Positions 3,383 to 62,020 of a DNA stretch of 64,000 nt are shown here, one piece after another. Every line of letters begins with the position of its first letter. Position 1 is the stretch's first letter. The DNA lies in contig CM119267.1 in NCBI GenBank assembly GCA_051294375.1, positions 6,065,992 through 6,129,991 on the forward strand, given 5' to 3'. A model generated the notes under the pieces. It saw only the letters and a list, made by a program, of their open reading frames with translations, did not search any database and was not told the DNA's origin. The stretch comes from Paraspadella gotoi. Lineage: Eukaryota > Animalia > Chaetognatha. The position numbers were made by a program, and so were the translations under genes.

Positions 3383-4619
3383 GGGTAGTGCGGGGTAATT
3401 CGGAACACTTTTGGATGTATTCATATTTTTCACATAGTAAATTTATTTTTTCTAATTTTTTTTCTGGTGATATATCGAGCAGTGTCCCCGCTACGTTTTT
3501 ATCCTGTGGCCGCTAGGGGCCGCATTTTTAAAAAAATTGAAAAACGTTCAGTTTTACCCCACCCTGGGGTAAAATGGAACACTTAATATATTATGAAATC
3601 GGTACAACCAATATAAAAATTATCCATTCATTTAATAAATAAGTTATCTTGCCCCTGACTTTGGACAGGCTTTGGTAGTTTAAGGCCTCCATCACTCTTA
3701 CAAGATAATGACATAGCAGGTCCCTGCAAGCTTTCAATCAAGACTCTCTCACAGTCTCCTTTATTCACTCCTTTACAATATAATAATAATAATATAATAT
3801 TACAAAATATAATGACTAAAACATTATTATTTGGAGTATAGAGCTCCTAATTGATAAAAAAAGTATAAAAAATTTTAAATCTTACATTTTTTTCATTCCC
3901 GAATATCGTCCCCATCTTTCCTTTCAATTAATATTGGTTTTTTCCCCATTTTTAAATTTCCAATGTTATTTTTTCTTAATCTTTTTATTTATAATTTTTA
4001 TTTATCTTTTTAAATTGTATTTTATTTTTTATATTAATTTCATCTTAATTTTGTCTCAAACTAATTTTTAAATTCTATTCCAAATTTTTGTATATTTTTT
4101 ATTGCTAAAAATTGATTTTTTACTGTAACATTAATAGTATAATAATTTTTTTCTGCCTAATTATTTAACAAATGTTTCTAACTGTTATCAATACTTAGTA
4201 AATTATTACTAACACGTTATAAAAAGCATATGAGGTAACACAGAATACTTACTTTACAGGTTTACAAGTTTACAGTTGTTCCGTTTTACCCCAATTTAAT
4301 TGTAGCTATAATTGAATTATTTTTTCGAAATAATCTATTCAATAACTAAAAATTAGTAGTCTCGTCTCGTCGTATCATATATTAATATTCCATAATCATA
4401 TTACTTTAAATGTAACGGTGAATAGAGGCTTGAAAACGACTACTCAAAGACAAAATTTGATAAGCAGCTTTCAATGCTGTAACTTTAATAATGGAAAGTT
4501 AAGTTAGTGAAATATTTAATGCACCAAAAAAATGATAAAATATCTTCAAACATTTTTTTATTTCATTTTATATGTCAGTGTTCCGAAATACCCCTGTTCC
4601 AAATTACCCCGCACTACCC
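3383..4619. mobile_element. Non-autonomous TIR DNA transposon (MITE, pogo/Tc1-mariner-like)
   Basis: Left end GGGTAGTGCGGGGTAATTCGGAACA and right end TGTTCCAAATTACCCCGCACTACCC are inverted repeats with 1 mismatch. TA lies on the left flank and TC on the right. Internal GGGGTAAAATGGAAC-type copies occur at ~3546-3582, ~4278 and ~4578. No transposase ORF. Confidence 0.85.
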
Positions 4620-24603: not shown

Positions 24604-25989
24604 TTATGTGTTAGCATGCTGTTTCGTATTCGTTAAAACTAAATGTGATATTTCCATAGTAGACCAAATACGGAAGGGTAAAGCCCAAAACGAAGCTCCT
24701 TCGGTCACATAAACTTGTGAGTCACCCTTAACACCAAGCCCCTCATAAAGACCTCTAAAAAATGGGTTTTCTAACCATAATAAAATGTTCTCTGGAAAAT
24801 ATTGTCCGCCATGCGTATGAGCAGATAAAATCAGATCAAAATGAAATCGCGAATTTAACGCGCTTAAGGCAGCTTTTGGCTGATGAGTTAATAATATTCG
24901 GGTATGATTATCTTTGATATCATTCATTGCCAAATCTAATTTAAAACCGTGGCCATCATAATTAACTTTATTAGCATAAATGTCATCAGTCCCGATAAGC
25001 CATATATAATCTTTATTTAATGAACAAAAAATTTTAACACACGAGTTGTGAAGAGGGCGAATGCCTAAACCTCTTAAAAATGAGAAAAGTTCATCAACAT
25101 GTCCCCAAATGTATTCATGGTTTCCAGTCACAAAATATATATGTTTTGCCTTTAGATTCTGTAACAAGGAAACCGTATTAGCAAAATCTGCTAAGCTTCC
25201 ATCAAGTAAATCACCATTAATTAAAATAAGATCAGGATTTAAGTTATTAGTGATGTGTACAATTGTTTCTATATGCTTACTGCCAACAGAGGTTCCAATG
25301 TGTATGTCACCAAGATGAGCAATGACTAAACCTGTTAAAGAATGTGGTAACCCCTTGATTTTAATATCAACTTTTTTAACTTCAGGGGGACCTAATGCTC
25401 CATAAATAGAAACAGAACTGATCAATAAGGCAAACGTTAATGAACCGAGAGCCCGAAAGCAATGGAAGTAAGCATTAAATGAAGGGACAGCTGCAAATAC
25501 AATTTTGTAAAAAAAACCGTACACAGTCCAAAGCACAGTAATTAACAGAGCACTTGTAAGGAACTGTAGGTGAATCCCAGCAACACACCATGCAATGTAG
25601 AGAAAGGTTTGAGGTAGGGGGATTGACAAGAGCGAGGTTACCCACGCTAATTGCGATAAGATGCAAATAACCACAAACAGAAATCTTTTAAAGTAATGGA
25701 AAAATAAAGTATATGATGGATGAAGTTCCAAAATGAAGGCAAAATTTGTTACACTGAAGCCAAATAAACTGAGAAATGTCAAAAGCACTTGTGATATAAT
25801 CAGAGTTTGCATTCGTCTGATGAAAATACTCGTTTCCCTATTGTAGGAGCGAAGCGAAATCTCCAACCACAGGACACCAGATGCCAAAAAGCTTAAGAAC
25901 AGTATAACCCAGCGCCTTGGCAAATAATTCTTTATAACGGAGATAGAGGTTTGATTTAATCTTTCAATTAGTTGTGGTAGACTAGTCAT
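24604..25989 (-). CDS. TMPPE: Transmembrane protein with metallophosphoesterase domain, copy 1
   Basis: N-terminal TM helices plus DIH, GDLLD, GNHE and HTHGGQ motifs; intronless. Confidence 0.88.
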   Translation of the reverse strand: MTSLPQLIERLNQTSISVIKNYLPRRWVILFLSFLASGVLWLEISLRSYNRETSIFIRRMQTLIISQVLLTFLSLFGFSVTNFAFILELHPSYTLFFHYFKRFLFVVICILSQLAWVTSLLSIPLPQTFLYIAWCVAGIHLQFLTSALLITVLWTVYGFFYKIVFAAVPSFNAYFHCFRALGSLTFALLISSVSIYGALGPPEVKKVDIKIKGLPHSLTGLVIAHLGDIHIGTSVGSKHIETIVHITNNLNPDLILINGDLLDGSLADFANTVSLLQNLKAKHIYFVTGNHEYIWGHVDELFSFLRGLGIRPLHNSCVKIFCSLNKDYIWLIGTDDIYANKVNYDGHGFKLDLAMNDIKDNHTRILLTHQPKAALSALNSRFHFDLILSAHTHGGQYFPENILLWLENPFFRGLYEGLGVKGDSQVYVTEGASFWALPFRIWSTMEISHLVLTNTKQHANT

Positions 25990-26436
25990 GGTTCCAAAAA
26001 GATTGGCAAAATATACACGCATATACTTCGTTTCCTAAATGGATATAAAAATATTTTAAGTAAAAGCTTTTGTAAATAAAAATACGATATAACGTTTTAC
26101 ATAAAACCCCACATAGAACACAAATTTACCACAAATATTAGTAGTTAAACTTAAGATTTTTTTCAATTTAAAAATAAATCGATTAGTCAACAAAAATAAA
26201 ATCAATAATTAAAGCAGTTGAAACAGTTGCTGGTAATAAAAAGCAAAAGCAATAAATCACAGCCGGATTGGTAAAAAAAAAGTTATTCAAAAGATCCAAA
26301 ATTGGCGACATTAATATAAAATTTCCTGCAACAAGATCCATAAAACCATTTTGATATTTAATTACATATAAGAAATACCCTATTTTTTTCAAATAATAGT
26401 TACACTTAAACTAAAATGAATGTTTTCGATTATAAA

Positions 26437-27771
26437 TTAAGTCAAAATAAGCTTTGATATTTCCATGGTAGACCCAAGACGAAAGGGAAAGGCCCAAAAC
26501 ATTGTCCCTTCAGTCACATAGACCTGTGAGTTACTTAAAGGTCCTAATCCTTGATAAAGACCTCTAAAAAAAGGGTTTTCTAGCCACAACCAAATATTTT
26601 CTGGAAAAAATTCTCCTCCGTGAGTATGAGCCGAAAGGATAAGGTCAAAGTGATAATGCGAATTTAGAGCGAGTTGGGCTGCCTTCGGCTGATGGGTAAC
26701 TAAAATACGGGGATGATTATCTTCAATGCCACTCATCGCCAAATCCAAGTTAAAGCCATGATTATCATAACCGATTTCATCGGCATAGATATCGTCCGTC
26801 CCAATGAGCCAAACGTAATCATTTTTTTTGGAGCCAATGATTTTTACGTGTGAATTTCGAAGAGAGAGAAAGTCATAGGTAGAGAGAAACCGAAGCAGAT
26901 CATCTACATTTCCCCAAATATACTCATGATTTCCCGTAACTACATAAACACCATACGTAGCTTTAAGCTTCTCAAGGCGAGACAATGCATCAGCAAAATG
27001 GCTAACACGTCCATCGAGAATATCCCCATTTATTACAATTAAGTCTGGATTAAAACTATTGGTGATTTCCACAACGGTGTCTACGTGATAACTACCCACA
27101 GACATTCCAATATGTATATCTCCGAGCTGCGCGATTACTAGTCCTTTTAAAGAAGGTGGTAATCTATCAATCTTGATTTCAATTGGTCGAACCTCGGGTG
27201 GACCAAGCGCTCCATGGATAGAAAACGCACAAATTACAATAGCATAGACAAATGAAGTGATTGCACGAAAATTATGGAAGTTTAACCAAGATGGGAAATA
27301 AAAAAAATTTTTCCATATGAGCGTCAAAAACAGAGCGCATAAAACATACTGCAAATGAATTCCAGCAGCGCACCATGCTACGAAAAGAAGCTTAACGGGA
27401 AAGGGCGAGGATATTAAAGCTGTTACCCATGCTAACTGTGTCAAAACGCAGACACAGATTAAAAAAAGTCTACAAAAATCCCACAGAACTATCACAGAGA
27501 CACGATAGCTTCCTAAAGTGTAAGCCTTTATTCTGCTTTTGTTATAGACGAAGATACTGAGGGCAGCCACCAGTGTTTGAGATAATATCAAATACTGCAA
27601 CCGCCTAAAGAGCATTCTTGCATCTTTGTCGAATGACTGCAGGAGGAATTCTGCGAAAAGAACGCAAGCAGCCAGTAATCCAACAGCTATAACTAACCAC
27701 CTGGGCGTTAAATGTTCGAAAATAGGAAAAATTTTGTGTTGAAAATAGTTTTTGACAGAATGAAGCGTCAT
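26437..27771 (-). CDS. TMPPE: Transmembrane protein with metallophosphoesterase domain, copy 2 (tandem paralog)
   Basis: Same motifs; collinear with copy 1 along its length. Confidence 0.88.
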   Translation of the reverse strand: MTLHSVKNYFQHKIFPIFEHLTPRWLVIAVGLLAACVLFAEFLLQSFDKDARMLFRRLQYLILSQTLVAALSIFVYNKSRIKAYTLGSYRVSVIVLWDFCRLFLICVCVLTQLAWVTALISSPFPVKLLFVAWCAAGIHLQYVLCALFLTLIWKNFFYFPSWLNFHNFRAITSFVYAIVICAFSIHGALGPPEVRPIEIKIDRLPPSLKGLVIAQLGDIHIGMSVGSYHVDTVVEITNSFNPDLIVINGDILDGRVSHFADALSRLEKLKATYGVYVVTGNHEYIWGNVDDLLRFLSTYDFLSLRNSHVKIIGSKKNDYVWLIGTDDIYADEIGYDNHGFNLDLAMSGIEDNHPRILVTHQPKAAQLALNSHYHFDLILSAHTHGGEFFPENIWLWLENPFFRGLYQGLGPLSNSQVYVTEGTMFWAFPFRLGSTMEISKLILT

Positions 27772-27834
27772 GGCTCTTATAGCACTAGGTAAATTCCAAA
27801 AATTTTATTGGAATAATGTTTCTTCTGAAATAAA

Positions 27835-28065
27835 AAAAATTTTAAAAGTATTGTGATCTCGCCAGACGTTACCATCAAAGAAAATTAATAAAAAGACCAC
27901 CAAAAAAAATACGAATGATTGATGTAATAGTGATTGATTGATGTAATAATAATTTATTTATTAATGTAATAGTAATTGATTGATTGATGTAATAATAATT
28001 GATTGATTGATGTAATAATAATTGATTGATTGATGTAATAATAATTGATTGATATAATAGTAATT
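27835..28065 (-). mobile_element. End fragment of the Helentron/DINE-like repeat family also found in the SAMM50 and ECHDC3 introns
   Basis: The reverse complement matches 48540-48640 and 52545-52580 (aacgtctggcgagatca.tatacttttaa). It is followed by an (ATTG/AAT)n microsatellite. Confidence 0.7.
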
Positions 28066-28066
28066 G

Positions 28067-29873
28067 AGCATTCCTGGAGATCAATGCCCTCTGGAGGCCT
28101 ATGGGAAAATGAAGAGCAAGGTTTTTTTTAAAGAATAAATGGAAAAAAGAAGAGAAATGGAATGGAAAAGGATAACGTTTTGAGAAAAAAAAGGAATTCA
28201 GATATCTTTTTTTTTTTTAATATTTTTTATTTTTATTATATGAAATTGGTACAACCAATATATATTTGGGTAAAAATTAAGGTTAAAATAAATTATGGTT
28301 AAGAATAAATTAAGAATAAGTGTAAGTGAATTTAAAAAAATTAAGGTTAAAAATAGGTTAGGCTTAAGTTAGGGTTAGGGGTAAGTTAGGAGGGTAAGTT
28401 AGGGGTAAGGGTAAGTTAGGGTAAGTTTGGGTTAGGGGTAAGTTAAGGGTAAATTAGAGTTAAATTTAAAATTAAGTTTTGGCTTAAGTATACAATAATT
28501 TAACATTTCAAAAAATAATATTTAAATATTAATAAATTTATAAAAATATAATAATAATATTTACAAAATAACAGTTTTTATTTATGATTACAATGGTCAT
28601 TTAATAATTCGGAGAGAATGAGAGATATCAGGGTTAAAATTGCCTCTCTCTCTATCTCTCAAAGTTAGTGTTAGGACCCGCCGGTCCGTCCCTCCAGAAA
28701 AACGCCCCCGAGAATCTTTGATTCGAGGAACTTCTATCGGCGAACCGCTTCGGTCGTTCGGGGAAACCTTCAAAGGCAAGAATTGGCGGCCGGAGTGGAT
28801 CGACGAAGAATATCAAACAGTTTATCTTTTAATCTTTGAGTTTCTGAAGAATTCTTAAAAAAGGTACCTTAATAAAATAATCAAAGCATATAGATATTCA
28901 AACAGTACACAGAATAATATCAAAAATCATTATTAAACGTTCAAAAGAATTACAATGAATTATATAAAGAAAACGTAAGGATTCAGAACGCAATGAATAA
29001 TAATGAAAAAATACTGAATTTCGACAAAATAACTGAATCACGACGATGACGAATGTAGAGAAAAGATCATAAATAAACGGTAAATCCTTGTGACGACGTA
29101 ATAAAGTTTAACACAGATATCACGATTTGTGAGTCTTTGGATCTAACATTAGTATCCAAATATTTAAAAACTATTAAAACTGGTTGATGAAGGTTCAAAA
29201 AACAAGAACCTAAACATATCCGAATTATTAAATGATCATCAATGGTTATCACAAATGAAAACTGTTTTGTAAATATCTATCAAAGGCAATAAAAAAAATT
29301 ATTATGAAAGAACCCCCTCCTCGACCTAGCGGAGAGGGAGAAGACGTCGGGAGAGAAACTGGACTAAAGACCGGGACCGCTGGCGCCGTAAAGTTTATAA
29401 GTTTCTTATCCACTTGGAGTCTTGATATTTAATGGTACCTTAATAAAATAAAGCATATAGATATTCATACAGACAATAATGAAATACTAACTAATTAATC
29501 AAAGCAATAGTAAATAAATAAACAAATCCATGAAGAAACCACTAAGCGTCCACAAATGTTTATTATTTTAGAGAAGAGTCCCGTTTCAGAGCAGAATCTG
29601 GAATGACCGCAAAAGAGAGAAAGAGACGTATGTCGATATCTCCTATATTAAAAGAGCATCTGAGTTACGGTCGTCTGGACTTTACAATTATAATTAATTT
29701 TTTTTTAAAATTAAAAAGAAATCCTTAGCTCGTGAAGCTTAAAAACGTTTTTAATATCATTGTTGTTACAGTCTTAACTTTTCTTTTCCATAAAAAAAAG
29801 AACTTTATTTTTTCCTTTTCTTTCTTTTCGTTTTCCCATAAGCCTCCAGGGGGAATTCAACTCCGGGATCGCC
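28067..29873. mobile_element. Non-autonomous TIR element (Mutator- or hAT-like) with an 8-9 bp target-site duplication
   Basis: ~50-bp imperfect TIRs (AGCATTCCTGGAG...GGCCTATGGGAAAATGAA versus TTCGTTTTCCCATAAGCC...CTCCGGGATCGCC). AGTAATTG flanks both sides (28059-28066 and 29874-29881). It contains GGTTAG/GGTAAG repeats at ~28350-28470. Confidence 0.75.
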
Positions 29874-30179
29874 AGTAATTGATTGATTGATGTAATTGAT
29901 TGATTGAAAGCGGATAATTAAATATTAGTTATCTGGTTCTAGGTCCCGATCACATTAATGAAGAGTTATCTCTTTTGAAGGCAATTGATAAACGTTGTAA
30001 AAACGATTTACATTCGAAAAAAATTAATAATATGAATTAATTAATCGAATAAATGCTATTAAATATTGATAATTAATTAACGAAAGGCGAAGGGTGTTTC
30101 TTGTTTGTTGACTTTTCGACCAAAGGAACATCGAGGAGTAGGAGGAGGAAGAGGAGGAAGAAGAACGAATAAAACAAAA

Positions 30180-30730
30180 GGGAGCTAAAAATAGAACCAG
30201 CCTTACAATTATTATAAAATTGTATATATAAATCTAAATATTTTCCCTTTTTATCTTTTTTTTTTTTTTTTTGCATCTAGACCTACCCCTTCCCCTCGCT
30301 GGGAACCGGTGGGGGTTGAGTATCGTTTAATCGATGGAATTCATGGGGAAGTGGAAAGGGACTGAGGAAGAGGAAGAGGAGGGAGAAGTGGAAGAGTCCA
30401 CGGTTGGCGTCTCTCCTTTTTTTATTTTGTTTTTACTTAAATTTATTTTGTTTTGTTTTACTTCTTTTTCCATTTTTTTCATATTTTATTTTTTTCCCTC
30501 TAGCCTAAGGAATCGATTAAACTTTCTTACTCAGTCACACGGTCGAATGAATTTTCCGTCGATTACTTTGAATGTGGCTCGCGATTGTCTAGACGAAGAA
30601 ACGTGCGAACACCGTTTCTGTGCTTTGCCTCGCATCCGTTTGATTGAACGCGGGATTTTTCTCTCACCGGTTCGTGTTTGTTTACGTTCGAATTACGTAA
30701 TATCACGCGGCCCGTTTATTTATTTCAAAT
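30180..30730. promoter_or_regulatory. Putative bidirectional promoter at the strand switch
   Basis: This is the only divergent intergenic region. It has a GC-rich centre with an outward-facing GGGGAAG(G/T)GG on both strands and a CpG-rich non-coding block at 30540-30730. Confidence 0.45.
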
Positions 30731-30839
30731 AACGTTTTAACCTAATGCCTTATCATAATTTACTTTGTATCATTACTTACTGAGTGATCAATGACTAACA
30801 ATGCTTCTCATTTCAGAATCAATCTCTTAAATAAAGGAT

Positions 30840-32471
30840 ATGGCGTTCCTTGACGATCGTGACTGGCTCATTTCCCATATTCGCCACTGCTTCGTGACGA
30901 GCGACGAAACGGGGCTCTGCGAAAGAATCATCGCACAAGACGAAGAATGGGAAAGACTCGTCGACGGAGATCGAGGACGAGACGTCTTCATGTCTTTCGG
31001 CTCCTGGACGAGAAACGATGAGGCTTCCTCCGATTCCGACGGATTCTCCCAGGAGTCGTCGTTTTCCTCGTCGCCGCTCGCGTCTCCCGTCGCCGCTTCA
31101 ATGCCCCATTCTTTCGAAATCCGTTTCGGCCTCAACTACAGTTCCAAGTTCAAGAAAGACCGTCAACCCGTTGGAATCAAAGTAAAAAAGGATAAAACGC
31201 CGGCGCCGAAACAGCGAAACTTTGACTGGCGCCGTGAAGACGTAGAGTACGATCCGGAATCGATGGGACACTTGTTCGAAAGGAAAGAGATTCCGGCTCG
31301 TTCTGCGGACTCTGACGGCGATGCGAAGCCGCTTTCCTCGCTTTCCAAGCTGTTGACTACCGTGGCGGATCTCCCGGAGGACCCTTTCTTCTCGTTCGCC
31401 CAGTTTGACGCCGCTTCTCACCCAGGCGTCGCCGCCAAACGCATTGACATCTTTTTGATGATGTGCAGTGGCGAAGATCGGTGGCAACCCATGCCCGTCG
31501 TAGTGCAATGCACGGCCCGGGTTTCGGACCTCATCGGACTCATCTGCCATCATTACTCTCGCAAGCGTCGCGTCCCTCCTTTGAAAAACCTTACCGTCGA
31601 CGGTTATTCCTTATACATCGCCGACGACGACGGCGAAGTCGACGACGACATTCCACCCTTGGACTCTCGAGAACCAATTACCAAGTTTGACTTCACGAGC
31701 CTGGCATTGGTTGAGAAAGATTCCCCTCCGAGCGCCGAAGACTCGGCCACTATCATTACCGTTAACATTCCTCAGCGAGGCTGGCACAAAGTGCAGATAG
31801 AAAATCCAGACGTTCCTATGAAAGTCATCCTGAAGATTGTCCTCCAGCGCCGTCGAAAGAAGGAAGGACGCGGGATCGAGTACGTACTGGAGAAACAGAG
31901 CGAACCGGGTATTCCCGTCGACTTGGAAAAACCCCTAAAGGAGATGGAAACCCTAGAGTTTTGTCTCATTCGCCTTAACTCGGTGCGTGGCGACGAACGT
32001 CCAGACGACGAAGTTCCGGCCGAAGAGGATCAGCGCGACTCCATCCCGGAGATCCTCGGGATCTTACCTTCTCTGCCAGAGGCGAACCGACGCTACAAAG
32101 TATCCGTGGTGAAAAAGTTCAAGGCCAACGCCGAAGTCCACTTGGACATTGACGGGGAGCGATTGGAAGTAACGCCCATTTCGGGTTCCGGCTCCAGCGT
32201 CAAGCCCTTGAATCTAGAGATGCAGACCCTTATTCATGCCGAGATCGTTGAGGAGAAGGCGAAAGGCAAAGCCACATTTCGAGTTCGCTATCAATCGGGC
32301 GGCAATTCGGACGCCAAGCACATTGATTTCAAGTGCCTGTCGATGGTGGCGAGGGAAATTGTTGATCGCGTCAACGCCGTATTAGATTTCCGGACCGGAT
32401 TGTCCGGCATTGTAGTCCGAAGAGAAAAGACGGAAAGGAGAAGCATAAAGCGGCATTCACTGTTGCCGTAA
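30840..32471 (+). CDS. MAPKAP1: TORC2 subunit SIN1, intronless
   Basis: MAFLDDRDWLISHIRHCFVTSDETGLCE, a CRIM region (DLIGLIC...YIADDDGEVD), then RBD and PH-like C-terminus. Confidence 0.95.
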   Translation: MAFLDDRDWLISHIRHCFVTSDETGLCERIIAQDEEWERLVDGDRGRDVFMSFGSWTRNDEASSDSDGFSQESSFSSSPLASPVAASMPHSFEIRFGLNYSSKFKKDRQPVGIKVKKDKTPAPKQRNFDWRREDVEYDPESMGHLFERKEIPARSADSDGDAKPLSSLSKLLTTVADLPEDPFFSFAQFDAASHPGVAAKRIDIFLMMCSGEDRWQPMPVVVQCTARVSDLIGLICHHYSRKRRVPPLKNLTVDGYSLYIADDDGEVDDDIPPLDSREPITKFDFTSLALVEKDSPPSAEDSATIITVNIPQRGWHKVQIENPDVPMKVILKIVLQRRRKKEGRGIEYVLEKQSEPGIPVDLEKPLKEMETLEFCLIRLNSVRGDERPDDEVPAEEDQRDSIPEILGILPSLPEANRRYKVSVVKKFKANAEVHLDIDGERLEVTPISGSGSSVKPLNLEMQTLIHAEIVEEKAKGKATFRVRYQSGGNSDAKHIDFKCLSMVAREIVDRVNAVLDFRTGLSGIVVRREKTERRSIKRHSLLP

Positions 32472-32617: not shown

Positions 32618-34962
32618 ATGTCGGAAAACGACGAAAACCACAGATGCGTCGTTGAAGCAACAGTCGTCAGTGGTTTCGAAGAGGTTGCCGCCCAAGAGAT
32701 ACGTGATAAACTGTCCGCGAATCCCAACCCGCTTTATAATGAATATGAGATTTTTAAAGGTACAATTTGAATGAGTTGAGAAACCTCTAAAACATATTGA
32801 TAATTGAAGTATTGAACAAAAGTTGGTTGAAAAAATTGCACATGTAAGAGTAAAAAAAATGAAAACAAGATCGGTGCATCCAATGTGTTGCGCCGCAATG
32901 ATTTTCTTTTCACGTGTATTTCTCTTTGATCATATGATTACATAATTATGAAATTTGTATAACAAACGTTTTATGGTTCATAATTTCAAACAATCAGACA
33001 TTACACGAAGTATGCCGCATTCATTTTACGTATTTATAACATGTACTGTATCGGAATTCTGTCTTTTATTCTTGAATGTTTTACGATTTCCTAAAGGCGG
33101 CGCAAGCAGTTTCTTAGATTTGAGGTTTTTTTCTGTATTAATAAATTAGCTAATTATAAATATTTTTAATATAAGTGGGACAGACCAAGACAGACATACC
33201 GACCGACCGACCGAAAAGTGACTTAGAGTTGCTCAGCGAGTACTCGCGGCGCAAATAACAAGAAAATTGTACGTTTAAACACTAAACACCTATAAATTTA
33301 AACCTTTCCTTTCAGGCCATTTGTATTTCAGCCTCGATGTCTGCTCAGTAAAGAACTTAAGCCAACTTCAAACTGTTGACAACTACTACGTTTTGGCGAC
33401 GGAGGTGCTGAGCGTCGATTTCTCTACTGACGTCTACGATTGCCTCAAACTTATTCGTCGGTTCCCTTCGCGGGTGCAATGGCAAGAAGCCTTCCTAGTT
33501 TGGCGCTCGGTGACGAATAAATTCCTGGATTACAACGCCGATAAAACCGAAAAAGAGATAGATACGTTTTTGAGGGACGAACCAGATTCTGAATGGTGGC
33601 CTCACGTTAGTCAAGTCAATCCTCTTTTTGAGCCCAAGTCGAAAAGCAATCGCAAAAAGGACAATAAAAAAAAGATAGTAAATGACTGCAAAACGGCTGG
33701 TCACGATGACATTGCCTCTTCGTCGCCGCCTGTGCCGCAACCGCCAGCGTCTCGCAAGAGCTCAAAAGCGAAAAATCCAAATTTGCCAACGTTTCGGGTC
33801 ACTTGCCATCGTTCCAAACCCGATGGATCTAAGCACGCTTTCACTTCGCAGGACGCCGCTAAGGTGTTCGGTGGGGCTATCAATAGGTAAAAGCTGAATT
33901 TTTTTTATCATAAAATATGGTTTTTAGTTATAAACTAGGAATTTTAGCGTTTTCGAATGGAACGTCGACATGACGGATTTCGACTTGGAGGTTGTCCTGA
34001 ACATTTCTAACGATAAAGTATGGGTGGCCATCGCTTTAAACCAGGAGTCTCTCCACAGAAGGCACATTCTTCATTTCGGTCCAACGACTCTTAGGTCGAC
34101 AATCGCAATGAACTTGCTTAAATTCTCCGGTTGGTTTTCTTGATTGGCTTGCTTACAATAATACAATTCAATCAATACGTTTATATATTAATCATTAAGA
34201 TATGCGCAATGGCGACACTATGTGCGACCCTATGTGCGGAGGAGGCAGTATTCCCATAGAAGCAGCCTACGAGTGGCCCGATTCCCATATCATCTGCGGA
34301 GACATTCACGATTTGGCCTTCCAAAGAGTTTACGATAACCTCGTATACAATAACACCAAGATCGCCGGAAAAAAAAGTAATTATAAATAGACTAATTGTT
34401 TTGTTGAGCAATCTCGTGAACGTTTTCGCCATTAAAAAAAACCAGATTCGCGAAAACCTCTCTCCGTGGACGCCTTTCAGTGGGACACGACGAGATTACC
34501 TCTACGCGACGAAACCGTGGACGTCTTCGTCACCGACCTGCCTTTCGGTAAACGAAGCGGGTCCAAGACGGAAAACAGAGTTCTCTACCCCGCTCTTCTC
34601 AACGAACTGGCGAGGGTCTCGAGGCGAGTCCGTCCATCACGATAAATCCGAGTATCACGATGAATATCTAATCAAGTAATTATTTTCAATGTTTCTGATT
34701 TGAATATCATTTATGCAGGCGGGGAAGCGGTCGCGCTGTTTTACTCACCGAAGACAAGAATAGTTTTTTCCGCGCCTTTGAGGCAAATCAATCGTTGTGG
34801 TTCAAGAAGAAACACCTTTGGATAAACATCGGTGGAATGTGGGGGGGCGTTTTTCTCCTGCAAAGAACAGATTCTCCATGGAAACGGCCGAATCCCTCGA
34901 AAAACAGTTTGCGGCAAAAGGAAAAACGGAAAAGAAAGTTGACTAAAGAAAGTGCTTTCTAA
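32618..34962 (+). CDS. THUMPD3: THUMP domain tRNA (guanine-N2)-methyltransferase, multi-exon
   Basis: TFRVTCHR...HAFTSQDAAKVFGGAI, ESLHRR, FGPTTLRST, CDPMCGGGSIPIE, VTDLPFGKR and GRAVLLT. Confidence 0.92.
32860..33262. mobile_element. Helentron/DINE-1-like non-autonomous element in THUMPD3 intron 1
   Basis: Subterminal inverted repeat TTGCGCCGC (32888) / GCGGCGCAA (33097, 33246), palindrome GCGAGTACTCGC, and a (GACC/GACA)n microsatellite at 33180-33213. Confidence 0.55.
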
Positions 34963-46079: not shown

Positions 46080-49000
46080 ATGGATTCCGACAAGTCGACC
46101 TTGTTCGACGGGGCAAATTCGAACGAAGAAGACGGACCACAAGTGAAAAGGGTCGTTTTGGAGGAGGTCCCCGCCCACGTAAACCGAATAAACGTAGACG
46201 GCTTGGCAAGAACCAAGGACGACATCGTTACCAAAGTTTGTCAGAACGTCTTCAAAGCCGGCAACTTTGCAGGCAACAGTTTATTATAAATATTATTTGC
46301 GACAAATTACTATAATTTTAAATTGGCTCACGATTTTGGCCTCTTGATTTCGCAGCCGTCCTCCAAGAATGTCTCGTCGCCAAGGCTAAGATGGAGCAAG
46401 GCTTGGGCCTTTTTTCTGAAGTAGGCGTGGAGATAGACGTCAGCGAGGATCCCAACGACGCCAGCAGAGAGGGTCTCGATGTTACCATGAGAGTTAAAGA
46501 ACCACGGAGAGTCACCGGCGGTGTCCATACGCTCGTGGGACATAACGACGGGTCGCTTATGTTGTCCGTGAAGGTTAGTTAATTTTAAGCATCGATCGAA
46601 ATGATCCAACAAAGCATTTGTCTTAAAAGGTATGACCGTACGACCAAAAAAAGACTTGGATCTTTTTTAGACCCCGAACGTGTTTGGCCGGGGGGAGAAG
46701 TTAAGCTTAGAGTACACGCACGGAATGATGAAATCGAAGACGCACACGGTCTCATTCACGAAACCGATCGATGCGGATCCAGACAAGTGGTTCACCGCCG
46801 CTGCCTTTCACACGCACGACGACAAGCCGTGGTCCGGTTTCGGAGAATCCTCACGGGGATTTGGCTTCAGAGTCGCCTTGCCAGGTGAAAAAAATAAACT
46901 ATTTTTATCTCGCCAGCTTTTCAGGCTTGGGCGCATTTTTTTTTAGTTCTGATTATCAAATATTATCATAATCGCGTTAATAAATAATTATTATTGAATT
47001 GATAAATCATTATCATCGTGTAAATTAGTTATTATTATCATGTAAATAAATCATTATCATCCTACCAATAGATTAATTAAATATTTTACAATCGATTCTA
47101 AATGTTTTATATTTTTATCTCGCCAATTGGGCTTAATTAATTAATTGGGGTTATTTTGGTTTGCCTCTGCTTTTTTGTGACCGTTGTCATTCACGCTTTT
47201 TTATCGTCACAATCGCTTTGTGTTTGCAACGATCTTGTAACGCTTTTGCGTATAAGTGGCGTCGTTGTCGGAGTTCCAAATTATAGATCGCTTTTTTCAT
47301 GATTAAATTTGGGTGTATAAAGCTGAAAATTTATATTCAGCTTCTCATCATTGATGTCCTTAAAATTGGGTCAGGACAGTTAATAAATATGTTTTGTTTA
47401 CGTTTTATCATAACAAATATCCTCTATTTTATGTCTCTTTCACTCGCTCTTTTAATTATATGTAGCTATCTCTTTTTCTTTTCCCCAGTGCTAATTCATC
47501 GGAAAATAAAAAACAAGTCTGCAGCTGGCTCTGCAAGGGTTCTTTCTTTTTCTCTCTTTTCTTCTGCTGCTGCTTTTTGATTTTTTTTTTTCTGATTGCC
47601 TTTGTTGCTGCCGCTGCTGACTTGTCCGAAAACGATTTGGCTTCTCTCTCTCTCTCTGCGTTTTTATTTTTAAAAAATTAAGATTGAACTCGTAAAATTA
47701 AGCATCGCATTCATTCATGTTATCATTTTGCTATCGCAACATCGGGTTTTTATTTCGTTTTTTTTCTCTCTCTTTATGCAATTGCGACGATCCTTATGCT
47801 TTTAAGATTTTTACCATCTTAAATTTGTTCTCTTTTTTCCATCGTTTTTTTTTTATTTGTTTAAAAATGAGTTCAGCTCTGCAGAGGCTGTCCAGCTTCT
47901 TTCTATCTTTCTTTTTCACTCATATACGCATGTTTTATTTATGATGAATGATTCATTGTGTTAATGAATAATTATCATCGCATTAATCATTTGGTTATTA
48001 TATCAATTATTGCTTATTATCATATCAATTATTGGTTATCATCATATTATTGGTTATCATCGTATCAATATTTGGTTATCATCGCATAAATATTTGGTTA
48101 TTATGGCATTAATAATTGGTTATTATTGTATCAATAATAAGGTATTATCGTATTAATCAATTATTTTATATTAATCAATTATTATTATATTAATAAATTA
48201 TTATTATATCCATCAATTAATTATTATTATATCCATCAATCAATTACTATTATATCAATCAATAAATTATTATTATATCAATCAATCATTATTATATCAA
48301 TCATTATTATATCAATCAATTACTATTATATTAATCAATTAATCATTATTATATTAATTAATAAATTACTATTATATCAATCAATTATTATTTATATTAA
48401 TTATTAATATATCAATCAATTAAATACTATTATATCATTAAATATTATATCAATCAATCAAATATTATTATATCAATCAATCAAATACTATTATATCAAT
48501 CAATTATTATTATATCAATCATTATTACATTAATAATTTGTTATCGCATCATTCATTTTTTATTTTTTTTTAGATTTTTTAATTAATTTTCTTTGATAGT
48601 AACGTCTGGCGAGATCATTATACTTTTAAGATTTTTTAATTCGTATTTTTAGCTTACGGGGGACTCAACACATTTCATTGGGACATTCTTTGGCGAGAGT
48701 TGAAGGCGTTGAACAATGGGGTCGCTATGACGGTTCGACATGACATGGGCCACTCTCTCAAGTCATCATTAAAACATACATATACCTACGACACGAGGGA
48801 CACGCCTATCCTGCCTTCTGTCGGCTTCTTGGCCAAGATCGCCAACGAGCTTGCTGGAATCGGTGGCGATGTGAGGTGATTAACGTTGCTAGTTGTACCG
48901 CGGCTTTTTCTTTCTTTTCTTTTTTTTTCCGAGGAGGAATTATAGTTTTTACTATTGTTAAAACTGGATTGTAATATCGCGTAGGTTCGTCAAATCTGAG

Positions 49001-49835: not shown

Positions 49836-50408
49836 ATGTCCACTCCAGCTCGTCGTCGTCTCATGCGCGACTTCAAGAAGCTGCAAGAAGATCCGCCGAC
49901 GGGCGTTTCGGGCACGCCTTCCGAAGGAGACATCATGCGTTGGAACGCCGTCATATTCGGGCCGCACGAGACTCCTTTCGAAGACGGCACCTTTAAACTT
50001 TCTATGACATTCTCGGAAGAATATCCCAACAAGGCCCCCTCGGTCAAATTCGTCTCGAAGATGTTCCACCCCAACATTTACGCAGACGGCAGTATCTGTC
50101 TGGACATTCTACAAAATCGTTGGAGCCCCACCTACGACGTCGGGGCCGTGCTTACCTCCATCCAGTCTTTGCTGGACGAGCCGAACCCCAACTCTCCTGC
50201 TAACAGTCAGGCGGCTCAACTTTATCAGGAGAATAGGCGAGAGTACGAAAAACGCGTGCGGGCGACCGTGGAGCAGAGTTGGATAGACGCCAGTTCCTTC
50301 GAGGAAGATCTCATCGACGCCGCCAAGACCCTGTCGCTCGCCGACAGAGGCGGCGGGGCCGCAGTTGCCGCGGATCAGGCAACCGGCGGTGCCGCTGCTG
50401 AAATATGA
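49836..50408 (+). CDS. UBE2A: Ubiquitin-conjugating enzyme RAD6/UBE2A, intronless, with a C-terminal extension
   Basis: [41 protein letters not shown] and [14 protein letters not shown]. Confidence 0.97.
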
Positions 50409-51010: not shown

Positions 51011-53203
51011 ATGTTCATCACGAAAATTCGCCCTGTATTCGGGACTTTACGTGGCATAAGCCACCGCTTAAACTCCACGGCGCCGATCACCTCGGTCGAG
51101 GACGTCGGTCCGGTGCGAACGATTTTGCTAAATAACCCCAAGAAGAGAAACGCTCTGGGCCTTCAGATGTTGGAGGAGCTCTATCAGCATATCTCCGCAT
51201 CGTCCTCAATGGAATCAATTAAGGTTCTCGTCATCGGCCACGTCGGCCCAGTCTTTTCGTCTGGCCATGACCTCAAAGAACTTACGCCCGAGAGAGGGAG
51301 CGAATTTCACGCGAATATTTTTGACCTTTGCACCAACGTCATGAAACTTGTACAGGTATCGATCGTACTTCGTAGTACGTCCTAATACTTTATCTATTTA
51401 ATGTATTTATCTTTATCGTTTAGAATTGTTTGTGTCGTCGTCTTCGTCACGCTATTTTACAATTGGAAATTGTAAAAGTTTTTTTTTTTTTATCATGAAG
51501 GTCATGTTTCATATCAATACTCGGATTTGTTTGTTTTATTTATAAAACAATTTTTATATAAAAAATAGGAATTACAATTAAGTTTTAATTATATTTCTTT
51601 CTCTTTTAATTATATGTCGCTCTCTCTTTTTTTTTCCTTTGCTGCTTCTTCTGATTCGTCTAAAAACAAGTTCAGCTCTTCAGCGGCTGGACTTCTCTTT
51701 CTCTCTCTCTCTCTCACTCATAAACGAATTTGTTTGTTTCATTTATTATGAATGACTCATCACATCAATGAATGACTATCATCACATTAATAATTAATTA
51801 TCACCATATTAATGATTCGCATCAATAATTGGTTATCGCATTAATAATTGGTTATCGTCGTATCAAAAATCAATTACTATTACATCAATAATCAAATACT
51901 ATTATATCAATTACTATTACAATAATTTGTTATCGCATCAATCATTCGTTTTTTTTTCCTGATTTTTTCATGAATTTTTTTTTGATAGTACTATCTAGGA
52001 AAAAAGTATATCACATAATTTATTTCTTTAATAAAAAGTATTCAAAACATGGATAAAACATCTTTAATATTTGGTAAGCCATTCCTCGGCATTCATCTGG
52101 ACATGCTCTCATACAGCAAATTGAGGTATGACAGTGAAATATTTTTTCACATCTTTAACGCAATTCTTTTCAGCCACGATGTTGATGTTGCGTATCTTTC
52201 CCTCTTTTCTGAGAGCTATAATAGTACTTTTTTGAACCAAAAAGAGGTGCAAGGCCTTTAGCATTACCAAATTAAAAAGAAATTAAAAAAATAACTAACT
52301 TTATTCAAAATAAAAACAAATAACTAAATACAAAAAAATGGTGGAAAAATAAATATGATTTTTTACGACATTAAGTAACAAAATTGTTTTGCCTCTAACT
52401 TCTATACGATTTGACCTACAAAAAATGGAAGGAAGATACTAAAAGGAAATTCAATGTAGATTTGGAAACATTCTTTTTTTAAATCAAACAAGTTTTCGAG
52501 TAGATATCCTTTATTAAAAATGTGATATATTTTTTTTCCAAGATCGTCTGTCGAGATCACTATACTTTTAAGATTTTTTTTTTCTCAACGAAAATTATTT
52601 TATTTGCTATACATTCATTGACATACATATTGCGTAGGATGTTCCCATTCCAGTGATCGCTAAGGTGAATGGCTTAGCAACGGCGGCAGGATGTCAGCTC
52701 GTGGCGACTTGCGACATTGTCGTCGCGACGCAAACTTCAAAGTTCGCCACTCCGGGCGTCAACGTGGGTTTGTTTTGTTCAACTCCGGGTAAGTGCAACT
52801 GACAACTGAGGGCTATCCCACACGGGATTTATTTGTTTAACCCTTCTCGCCAGCCGTGGCCGTGGCTCGCGCCGTTCCACAAAAAATTGCGGCGGAGATG
52901 CTCTTTACCGGCGAGCCCATCGACGCAGACGCAGCCCTCCGACATGGGCTTTTGTCGCGAGTTGTCCCGGAAAAGGAGTTGGACGCCTCGGTGGACCAAC
53001 TGACAGCTAAAATTTGCTCCTATTCCCGGTCGGTCGCTGCTGTCGGGAAAGACTGCCTCTACCGGCAAATGAGGATGGAGAGGGACGCCGCCTACAAATT
53101 GGCGGGGAAGACCATGGTCGAAAACTTGCGGCTCTTGGACGGACAAGAGGGGATAACGGCGTTTGTCGAAAAAAGAAAACCCGTTTGGGTCAAATACAAT
53201 TGA
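51011..53203 (+). CDS. ECHDC3: Enoyl-CoA hydratase domain-containing protein 3 (mitochondrial), 3 exons
   Basis: [43 protein letters not shown] and [14 protein letters not shown]. Confidence 0.95.
51590..52580 (+). mobile_element. Copy of the SAMM50-intron repeat family with a nested TIR element (51995-52542)
   Basis: Shares gttcagctct.cag.ggctg, the minisatellite and the end gtctg.cgagatca.tatacttttaagatttttt. The nested TIRs are CTAGGAAAAAAGTATATCACA and TGTGATATATTTTTTTTCCAAG, flanked by AT. Confidence 0.7.
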
Positions 53204-57934: not shown

Positions 57935-60900
57935 ATGGCAAAATCTTCTCCCCTGCCTTTTTTTGTTGACGAATATTGCCCAAACGGGACGTCGCCTTCT
58001 ATCGCCTGGGCGGACGACGGTTTAACCCATTGCTTTATTGACACCGTCTCTTCCTGTCTTCTTTTCGGCCTCTTGCTGATTTTTGGGTCTCTCGAAATAT
58101 GGGTTTATTGGAAATATTCTACGCAAATTCGGCGCGATCAGCGACCGAAATCGGCCTTCTTCCTCTTCCAGATCGTGTTCACAGCTGCGCTGACTCTCCA
58201 CTATATCGTTTACTTATTCTTGAGACTATTCTTCCTTCGCGACCGCGAAATCTTCGGATACATGATCGTCGCGGCCACGTTCACCATATTGACGTACCCG
58301 CTCTCTCTAGTGGTGATTCTGCTGGAGCGTCGGCGCCAGTTGCCGTCCATACCAACGCGCGGTCACGGATTTGTGTTGCTGATCTTTTGGACGCTGGCCT
58401 TCGCCAACGAGAACCTCGCCTTCGTTTCCATCTATGGATCGACATGGTTCTGGCGTCTGTCGTCAACCTCAGACAGCGTCGAATTTGCTCTTTTCGTCGT
58501 GCGTTACGCGGCGACGCTCTATCTATTCGTCGCCGGCTTTTTTGCTCCGGGAATTCCCAAGTCTTCGTCGCTGACACGAAGATCCTCCTACCACAACATG
58601 CGGAACCATGGGGATTTGGGTGAGTCCAGCTCAGGATCCACCTGGCGAAACCTGGGGAGGAAGCTCAAGCTCATGTTCATATACATCTGGCCAAAACGAT
58701 CCCTGCCGCTGCAGTTGGTGGCCCTATTTTGCTTCACTCTCCTCATCGCCGGTAGAGGAATCAACGTAATGGTTCCCATTTACAACAAGTACATCGTCGA
58801 CGATTTGTCGACGGCCATAGGGCGAGACGACAAAGGCAAACCCATCTTTCGATTCTGTTGGGACTACATTCTAGTCTACGTTGGGTTAAAGTTTCTGCAG
58901 GGCGGCGGCGCTGGCGCCTCGGGCCTGCTGAACAACCTTCGCTCATTTTTGTGGATTCGAGTGCAGCAGTACACGACTCGTGAGATATCCGTCTATTTCT
59001 TCGGACATTTGCATAGTTTGTCGTTGGGTTGGCATCTTTCTCGCAAGACCGGAGAAGTTTTGCGGATCATGGATCGAGGAACAAATTCGATGAACAACCT
59101 CTTGAGTTATATATTTTTCAACATCGCGCCCACCATCGTCGACATAGTCATCGCCATCGTTTATTTATCTTCGGCTTTTAATCTATGGTTCGGGCTCATT
59201 TGTTTTCTCACGATGGCTCTTTATCTCTTGGCCACTGTTTTAGTCACCGAATGGAGGACGAAATATAGGTATGTGATTAGTTGATTACTCGGGTTTTTAT
59301 TATACACTTAGAAATTTCTTTAACTATCTTTCTCCTCTTTCCAAAAGACGCGCGATGAACAAAGACGATAACGATCGGAACGCCAAAGGTGTCGACTCTC
59401 TCCTTAACTTCGAGACTGTCAAGTACTATGGCGCCGAAGACTACGAGGTCGGTCGATACCGCGACGCCGTCCTCAAGTACCAAGTCTCTGAATGGCTTTC
59501 CAATGCCTCCCTGGCGGTACTCAACGTCGTCCAAGGCTTCGACATCAACGCCGGCCTCTTGGCGGGCTCTCTCCTTTGCGCATACATGGTGGCCAACGAT
59601 ATCCAGGGTCTGACTGTCGGCGACTACGTCCTCTTCGCCTCTTACATCGTCCAACTATACGCTCCGTTGAACTGGTTCGGTACATACTATCGCATGATCC
59701 AGCAGTCTTTTGTCGACATGGAGAACATGTTCGAGTTGTTGGCTCAGCAGCAGACCGTCAAAGACATACCAATGGCGCCTGAATTGCGCCTCGACAACGG
59801 CGCCATCGAGTTCCGCAACGTGCACTTCCGATACGTTGCAGACAAGGAGATCCTCAAGGGGGTTAGTTTCACCGTGCCCAAGGGAACGTCTCTTGCGTTA
59901 GTGGGTCCATCGGGCAGTGGAAAGTCGACGATCATCCGCCTCCTCTTCCGCTTTTATGACGTGGACGATGGAGCCATTTTCATTGACGGACAGGACGTGT
60001 CAAAAGTAACGCAAAAGTCGCTGCGGCAGTCAATCGGCGTTGTGCCTCAAGATACGGTTCTGTTTAACAACGACATCCGTTACAACATTCGTTACGGCAG
60101 AGTAAATGCCTCGGACTACGAGGTTAGTTTCTTTTATTATTTGCAATGATGCTGTTGTCGTAAATGTAGACCGACTAATCCCCCACTCTTTCAGGTAGAG
60201 CAGGCGGCCATCGCGGCGGACATTCATGACAAAATCCTTTCTTTTCCCGACGGCTACGAGACGGTGGTTGGAGAACGGGGGCTGAAACTTAGTGGCGGAG
60301 AAAAGCAGAGAGTAGCCATCGCCAGAACCATTTTAAAGGTACGTTATATGGGCATAATTTTACTTTCGCCGACTGGGGTAAGGGAATTTAGGGTTAAGTG
60401 TTGGAGGGAAGTGGGTGAAATCGACTCGTAAGGATGTCCCACAGAAACTTTGGAGTGAAAATAATACATGGAATATGAGGGTATTGGGGGAGCACCGTGC
60501 TATTTGCAGAGGCGGACTTGCAAATAAACCGGTGGAGTCGTGCCACACGAAGAGATGGTTGATCAGGCCAATCTCCTCCGACTTCTTAAGCAGGGATATC
60601 TGTTGAGCCTGTAGTCAAGTCATCCAAATAATACCACGCGACAAAGTGTTACTGGCAATCGCAGAGGCCTGCCGTCTCTACAACGTCGAAGCGTTGGACT
60701 GCGCAAGGACACTCCAAAAGAGCCAACCAAGTCTCAAGCGCCAGCAGTATCTGGCTCTAGGACAAAGCTCGGTCGAAATCCACAGAGAAAATGATATTGA
60801 AATGAAAAGAACCAAATAACTTCACAGTCTAGCTGAACACAAGGCTATCAAAACAGCAGGACTGCTGATGGATGAACAGTCTCCAATCCACAGTGCCTCA

Positions 60901-62020
60901 GAGTTGACCCGAAAGACTTATGGGTAACAAAGCACGCTTCCGAGAATGTAAGCGTGTGAACTGTCGACAGTGGGTGCTCCACAAAAGTGGATAGGACGGT
61001 GCACCACTGTTGGAGGCGGATTTTATGGGGATTCGCCAGCGGGCGAAGGCGGCTCGCGTCAGGTGGTATTGGGATCGCATCGGGGTCTCCCACATCGTCC
61101 TCCAAACTGAGTCTGAGCGGGCGGCGCAGTCGACAGAAGCAATAGTCTTATCGTATGGATCTATGAGATATGAGAAGCACACAATATGACAGGGAGACGC
61201 TGACCAAGAACTGTGTATTCTGACACTTATCATTTATACATATAAAGCACGATAATCATTTATCTGAAATGTAAACAATAACAAATAAGGTAAATAAAAG
61301 CAATCATTATTTATATTTTTATTGAAGAACAGTTCCTTAATTGTTCGTAGCAAATTGTTCTTCATCTCGAGTCCTTCGATGTCCGCACGAATTTGTCTCC
61401 AACATAAGGGTGGTTTAGGAGTGGTTTAAGGTGATTAGGGCTCGGTTGTTTAAGGTTAAGGTAATCAGGTAATACATTTTTTTTTGAATTATTTCTTTTT
61501 TTAAGTAGTTTTTTTAAAAAAGCCAAATAAGGCAATAAAACGAATATTTTTTAAGCCATTTTTACTTGTAAACAGATTTAGTGTAACTGAAGTATTTTCT
61601 CAGGCCCCCAGCATCATCCTTCTCGACGAAGCGACGTCGGCCCTCGACACGCAGACTGAGCGGAACATCCAAGCGGCGCTGGACGTGATTTGTAAGAACC
61701 GGACGACGGTGATGGTCGCTCATCGTCTTTCTACTATCGTCAACGCCGATCAGATCCTCGTGCTTAAAGAGGGCGAGGTCGTTGAGAGAGGTCGCCACGA
61801 GGAGCTCCTCGCTGCCGATGGACTTTACGCCGGAATGTGGAACCAACAACTGGAGGCAGATTCCGATGACGCGCGCGAAGGGGCGGATGACGAGAATGGA
61901 GACGACTACGACGGCGGAGAAGACGGTACCCCCGCCGTGGCCGAACTCGCTCCGACGGAAGTCGCCGTCCGAATCGAGGGGAAGAAGTCAGGCCAGGAAA
62001 AGGGCGATGAGAACGTTTAG
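57935..62020 (+). CDS. ABCB6: ABC half-transporter ABCB6/HMT-1, 4 exons
   Basis: TMD0 (YCPN...CFID), [47 protein letters not shown] and [10 protein letters not shown]. Confidence 0.96.

Follow-up and report, generated by a model that had tools for sequence, protein, structure and literature searches.

A candidate divergent promoter zone between two long same-strand gene runs in a 64-kb stretch of animal DNA

Background

In C. elegans, divergent transcription starts are paired at about 120 bp according to one report (PMC3730107) and at 60-160 bp according to another (PMC3730108), as far as the accessible text of both goes. Operon spacers in Trichinella present medians of 103-749 bp in the accessible part of PMC7668243, and the longest chaetognath operon given in the accessible part of PMC12460157 contains nine genes. 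Runs of genes on the same strand average about 2 genes in animals and about 30 in trypanosomatids, as stated in the available portion of 10.64898/2026.07.29.740908. Narrow promoters of <150 bp, together with an absence of trans-splicing, are described for Dimorphilus gyrociliatus in the available portion of PMC7854359.

The window analysed here is a single stretch of 64 kb. An earlier note on this DNA had described a mirror-symmetric centre at its strand switch, from which one bidirectional promoter would launch both gene clusters through spliced non-coding leaders.

Data and scoring

The RNA evidence consists of the assembled contigs of a single run, X1, from one study; their status as RNA is a guess, supported by seven joints that skip introns. 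Such contigs drop rare variants, a contig end is not equivalent to a transcription start, and a contig over several genes is not equivalent to a single transcript. The alignment of X1 left out the low-complexity positions 30130-30394. Contig depth in genes was 40-220, and the mean depth was 2.06 over 29871-30231; absences of contigs carry no evidential weight. The depths of 67.1 and 72.5 in the bins 30232-30592 and 30593-30953 represent one contig, record 3, alone. X1 also comprises 16 joints and 764 pieces beyond those used here, and two other runs, X2 and X3, cover next to nothing of the stretch.

Splice-site matrices were built on 36 introns of the window (median length about 80 nt), 7 with RNA joints and 29 read by eye. 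Two of the 36 are GC-AG introns: 34624-34718 (plus strand) matches an RNA joint, and 13495-13344 (minus strand) was read by eye. SIN1, the UBE2 gene and BTBD2 were named through homologue searches; the remaining gene names, such as UQCR10-like, PABPN1-like and ABC-transporter, are labels derived from domain content and are presumptive.

Two gene runs and a single strand switch

Pfam support was obtained for 28 genes in the window, 12 on the minus strand followed by 16 on the plus strand. All 28 fit two co-oriented runs, and the sole strand switch among them lies where the earlier note had placed it. At most one switch in 27 neighbouring pairs has a chance probability of 2e-7 on the assumption of independent strands, one of the pairs being a tandem duplicate. 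The runs and the genes next to the switch are:

64-27771, minus strand: run of 12 co-oriented genes (Pfam; starts and stops checked by position), which may extend past the window
24604-25989, minus strand: tandem paralogue of the metallophosphoesterase
26437-27771, minus strand: metallophosphoesterase, first gene of the minus run (Pfam Metallophos; X1 records 1 and 2)
30840-32471, plus strand: SIN1/MAPKAP1 (subunit of TORC2), which opens the plus run and has an intronless coding part (Pfam CRIM, RBD_SIN1 and SIN1_PH; homologues; atlas)
30840-64000, plus strand: run of 16 co-oriented genes (Pfam; positions checked), cut by the window end, its last gene open-ended

The flanking pair, metallophosphoesterase (minus) and SIN1 (plus), is divergent, with a gap of 3069 nt from ATG to ATG. 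The members of both runs are unrelated housekeeping genes, and in many of them the coding region lacks introns. The tandem metallophosphoesterase pair (24604-27771, minus strand) consists of intronless genes for membrane proteins, and a shared upstream exon is possible. The UBE2A/B protein (49836-50408, plus strand) bears a C-terminal tail common to several metagenomic sequences, a possible lineage marker; in a UBE2 tree of 49 rows, a hand-picked subset of the hits, the row from the window did not group with the named chromadorean nematodes. In this tree and in a SIN1 tree of 24 rows, selected from the hits in the same manner, the window was placed solely with sequences that carry no species name, and the BTBD2 hits gave no lineage signal.

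No tRNA was found in the window, and its four Rfam matches were weak and all under threshold. A weak twister-ribozyme match at 3654-3696 (minus strand), in a spacer of 1.8 kb, scored 30.6 bits against a family threshold of 37.6 (E 0.018). A metagenome scan recovered seven distant SIN1 loci among 281 candidate stretches and no useful match to the strand switch.

Long same-strand runs of unrelated genes that diverge from one gap resemble the directional clusters of trypanosomatids, in the available text of 10.64898/2026.07.29.740908. Unlike those clusters, the runs belong to an animal with cis-introns (36 annotated), fall below the mean of about 30 while being cut by the window, and are known from these 64 kb alone. 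A literature search, in which subscription papers are thinly covered, returned no animal with such runs; the per-genome table in Data S4 of the same study may list outliers.

Spacers between the genes

Measured from stop to start, the 26 spacers have a median length of 304 nt; 18 are of 400 nt or less and eight are longer (one of 1813 nt), while the shortest are 74 and 93 nt. T exceeds A on the sense strand in 23 of them. Acceptors scoring at least 7 are present in the last 70 nt before the ATG in 7/26 spacers, compared with 1.2 in shuffled sequences (0/300 shuffles reach the observed value), and a strong acceptor is missing there in the other 19. Donors before the ATG are not enriched (1/26 vs 1.1). 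Over 200 nt the acceptor excess is weaker, at 10/26 vs 5.1 (6/300 shuffles), and the mean best score is reached in 28/300.

Spliced contigs bridge three spacers, which is not the same as a single molecule spanning them; two of the three, ahead of the UQCR10-like and PABPN1-like genes, are crossed by record 4, a spliced contig of 9953 nt. Assembled contigs may lose short tips, and no common spliced leader was found among the six X1 loose ends listed, the run having 216 more.

These features (co-oriented housekeeping genes, short T-rich spacers and, in some spacers, donor-less acceptors before starts) are shared with the SL operons of nematodes, tunicates and chaetognaths, as described in the accessible parts of PMC7668243, PMC7986045 and PMC12460157, and the spacers in the first two of these sources are similar in size to those of the window. 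Runs of at least 12 and at least 16 genes differ from the chaetognath operons, with their maximum of nine (PMC12460157, accessible part), as does the result for the six loose ends. Each run may represent a series of several operons.

Dense genes and short spacers are also found in the compact genome of D. gyrociliatus, for which the available text of PMC7854359 reports no operons and does not mention long one-strand runs. This operon-free compaction in an animal lends weight to a rather improbable explanation, in which the switch is an ordinary head-to-head promoter of a compact genome, each gene has its own small promoter, co-orientation results from collision avoidance or tandem history, and the contigs that cross spacers come from read-through or overlapping UTRs. 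Also in its favour, no leader sequence was seen among the six loose ends listed, and a contig over several genes does not amount to one transcript. On the other hand, spacers of 74-146 nt would need to accommodate a promoter between a 3′ UTR and a 5′ UTR, donor-less acceptors are enriched before the start codons, and the animal mean for same-strand runs is about 2 (10.64898/2026.07.29.740908, available portion).

The SIN1 leader on the plus strand

Three features describe the region between the switch and the SIN1 start codon:

30346-30669, plus strand: non-coding first exon of SIN1 (record 3 over 30395-30668; 30346-30394 extrapolated from record length)
30403-30503, plus strand: segment proposed as an intron, a retained T-rich part of the 5′ UTR (record 3, including a letter difference at 30495; 65% T)
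30670-30816, plus strand: SIN1 5′ UTR intron of 147 nt, GT..AG (RNA joint in X1 record 3)

Record 3 spans 30395-30668 and 30816-32285. Its joint, from 30668 to 30816, skips 147 nt with GT..AG ends (cut +1) and is anchored by 255 letters on the shorter side; SIN1 itself is cis-spliced. The record carries 49 further unplaced letters which, if colinear, would put its 5′ end at about 30346, beside the right-hand 10-mer of the core.

The segment 30403-30503 has the length of 101 nt and the GT and AG ends ascribed to it, and its splice scores are ordinary (donor 7.0, mid-range; acceptor 6.9, above 19/36 window introns). As an intron, it is contradicted by the assembled RNA, in which record 3 runs gapless over 30395-30668 at a depth of 122. 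Because the SIN1 contig is unspliced through 30403-30503 but is missing 30670-30816, the plus leader is spliced at other coordinates: the proposal of a spliced non-coding leader was right in kind, with a first exon and a 5′ UTR intron, and wrong in position. A minor form spliced at 30403-30503 may exist.

The first exon includes a purine tract, the proposed 101-nt intron and two upstream ATGs, and the spliced leader contains upstream ORFs of 46 and 6 codons. The 46-codon uORF (30546-30669 joined to 30817-30834, plus strand) spans the leader intron, has its stop 5 nt ahead of the SIN1 start and could regulate translation.

In agreement with the statement that neither proposed intron holds a credible ORF, the two ORFs of the region, 30334-30732 (plus strand, 132 aa) and 30073-30276 (minus strand, 67 aa), had no Pfam match. 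A coding first exon from the ATG at 30334 was weighed and rejected; the overlapping ORFs are those without a Pfam match.

The core and its sequence tracts

The following elements lie at the switch:

30125-30184, plus strand: first purine tract (40-mer scan)
30281-30345, no strand: G+C-rich non-coding core, likely promoter zone (composition; adjoining the estimated 5′ end of the SIN1 contig; promoter function putative)
30345-30400, plus strand: second purine tract (40-mer scan)

The G+C-rich core delimited earlier at 30287-30402 is real (116 nt, 55% G+C), and the two outward-facing 10-mers occur at 30286-30295 and 30345-30354, matching as an inverted pair at 9/10 positions. The mirror symmetry built on them is at chance level. 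An inverted pair of 9/10 appears in 39/300 dinucleotide shuffles of 30280-30410 and in 53/244 real windows of 131 nt; the best inverted composition profile (r 0.48) is equalled at 21/104 other places; and the hairpin fold has a z-score of 0.04. Core motifs taken by position are equally unremarkable, the 6-mer at 30330 occurring 28 times within the window. A bacterial promoter scan, an inapt method here, remained at chance level.

The region reads better as two same-strand units, each a purine tract with a T tract, than as a mirror. At a shift of about 209 nt this doublet gives r 0.64, matched at 2/104 places, with an anchor picked post hoc. In the whole 64 kb, 40-mers with at least 92% purine and at least 35% G occur on the plus strand just at 30133 and 30345, both at the switch, and on the minus strand at 595. 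A run of 17 T occupies 30256-30272 on the plus strand, and an acceptor-like site at 30256-30280 on the same strand scores 8.0, above 28/36 window introns; no known transcript uses it.

The switch is the sole head-to-head one, the estimated 5′ end of the SIN1 contig falls at the core, and the core is likely a promoter zone where transcription starts for at least one side. The location proposed for the promoter is probably right; little of the mirror centre with its twin 100-nt introns is real.

The minus side and its repeats

The features between the core and the first minus gene are:

30185-30286, minus strand: segment proposed as an intron (A-rich on its own strand; the T17 run on the plus strand; both ends inside the stretch skipped by the alignment)
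27826-29910, no strand: nested dispersed repeats that separate the first minus gene from the core (summed contig depth 340-1865)
27825-27826, minus strand: splice acceptor lying 54 nt upstream of the first minus gene (score 7.6, above 22/36; contig start)

The segment 30286-30185 indeed measures 102 nt and has GT and AG ends. Both proposed introns were said to be T-rich on their own sense strand, which holds for the plus segment and fails for the minus one (47% A, 32% T), where no sense-strand T-richness with a pyrimidine tract precedes the AG. Its donor is mid-range (8.0) and its acceptor scores 2.9, above 9/36 window introns; GT..AG pairs of this quality have a frequency of 0.8-0.9 per kb on antisense strands. 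The intron is not borne out by this composition, the weak acceptor and the frequency of such pairs, and 30185-30286 likely either belongs to the promoter or is where a much longer intron or outron begins. An alternative minus donor at 30206, with a score of -0.8, under all 36 real donors, is a tentative candidate. No minus-strand leader was seen in the X1 contigs, with 30130-30394 skipped.

It is very improbable that the core is a mirror with leader introns of about 100 nt at 30403-30503 and 30286-30185, even as minor forms. Mid-range donors, the plus acceptor and lengths that fit the median of about 80 nt speak for such introns, and rare variants would be dropped from contigs. Against this, the assembled form keeps the plus segment, the minus segment combines A-richness with a weak acceptor, the symmetry does not exceed chance level, and comparable GT..AG pairs are found at 0.2-0.9 per kb on antisense strands.

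The repeat block is high-copy and includes inverted copies and G+C-rich islands. Its end at 27812-28067 matches repeats inside long introns at 47.8-48.6 kb and 51.6-52.6 kb, and the repeat end found before 27825 recurs ahead of the acceptors at 48652 and 52637, which belong to two long internal introns. Because the same repeat end precedes these internal acceptors, the 2.4-kb stretch of repeats down to 27825, including 27826-29910, is likely one long intron or outron.

The copies at 27812-28067 (minus strand), 47833-48637 (plus strand) and 51601-52599 (plus strand) carry a 23-nt A+T satellite in sense orientation in all three. The satellite-bearing repeat ends 30-70 nt before a 3′ splice site and may insert into or expand introns near acceptors. 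A degenerate telomere-like tandem tract is present inside the block at 28340-28460. Elsewhere, the long ABC-transporter intron (60339-61603, plus strand) has 43% G+C vs 25-27% in other long introns and may hold a fragment of a mobile element.

A gap full of high-copy repeats, inverted copies among them, would suit a rearrangement breakpoint or assembly join at 27.9-29.9 kb, with the runs adjacent by accident and under no shared control. This is extremely unlikely in view of the intact 5′ gene structures on both flanks, which face away from the gap, and of a window free of N.

Record 2, aligned over its full 1820 nt, starts at 27824, one base past the AG at 27825, and continues through a 447-nt spacer into the paralogue. 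Record 1, the contig of the paralogue, starts at 26034, one base past the acceptor at 26035, and overlaps record 2 by 30 nt. If these contig starts at acceptors are branch points of the assembly graph, as we infer, a second upstream partner, with a last base other than G, would be joined there. Known spliced leaders, as far as described, end in G, and such a partner would fit a cis-spliced exon better than a leader.

The same region bears on a reading that we consider possible and yet unlikely, in which the core serves as promoter for just the plus run and the minus run has its own promoter at 27.9-29.9 kb, perhaps supplied by a repeat and about 1-2 kb apart from the first. The tracts of purines and of T recur on one strand rather than mirroring each other, and the strong acceptor-like site ending at 30280 shows a local skew entirely of plus-strand type; the 3069-nt gap with its 2.4 kb of repeats offers room, and the repeats contain G+C-rich islands. 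However, the repeat end before 27825 also occurs in long introns, which suggests a transcribed intron or outron, and the start of record 2 coincides with an acceptor, as expected of a spliced end.

A model for the strand switch

We propose, with about an even chance of being correct, that the core is a promoter zone launching both runs, which are probably operon-like, and that the two short introns are likely not working parts. The layout makes it plausible that both clusters share a single bidirectional promoter. In the proposed mechanism, the plus start would be located near 30343-30346, where the G+C-rich core ends on the right, with SIN1 keeping a non-coding first exon of its own. A divergent minus start would lie about 60-160 nt leftward, on the other side of the T17 run and the core, and the 2.4-kb repeat stretch that extends to the acceptor at 27825 would be removed as one long intron or outron. 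Shared or read-through transcripts would be resolved into the mRNAs of downstream genes through polyadenylation together with leader trans-splicing at the unpaired acceptors of the short spacers, as in the operons of nematodes, tunicates and chaetognaths, and the longer spacers may hold internal promoters.

By analogy, the closest functional counterpart of the site would be a divergent promoter that precedes nematode operons, a likeness that does not establish membership in that class. As with the bidirectional promoters and outrons of C. elegans (PMC3730107, PMC3730108, accessible text), the genes are head to head, the non-coding core is short, a start is predicted at its edge, and one side presents a long stretch before the first acceptor. 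The differences from those promoters are that the plus gene keeps a cis-spliced first exon, that the minus gene lies 2.5 kb off behind repeats, and that the starts are estimated ones.

A stronger version, speculative and rather unlikely, would be an animal with a trypanosome-like organisation of its housekeeping genes, in which every run comprises at least a dozen unrelated genes, exceeds 30 kb, is transcribed from a single promoter at a divergent strand switch and is cut up by trans-splicing. The site would then be marked by the paired purine and T tracts, and a minus leader may join either tandem paralogue.

Conclusions

Head-to-head promoters with a spliced 5′ UTR are commonplace, and the unusual part of this locus is the pair of runs, of at least 12 and 16 genes, that it would drive. 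The surrounding architecture, rather than the mirror feature, is the part worth following. If one zone of 300 nt launches both runs, it would allow the reach of polycistronic transcription, and the sequence that sets its start, to be tested in an animal.
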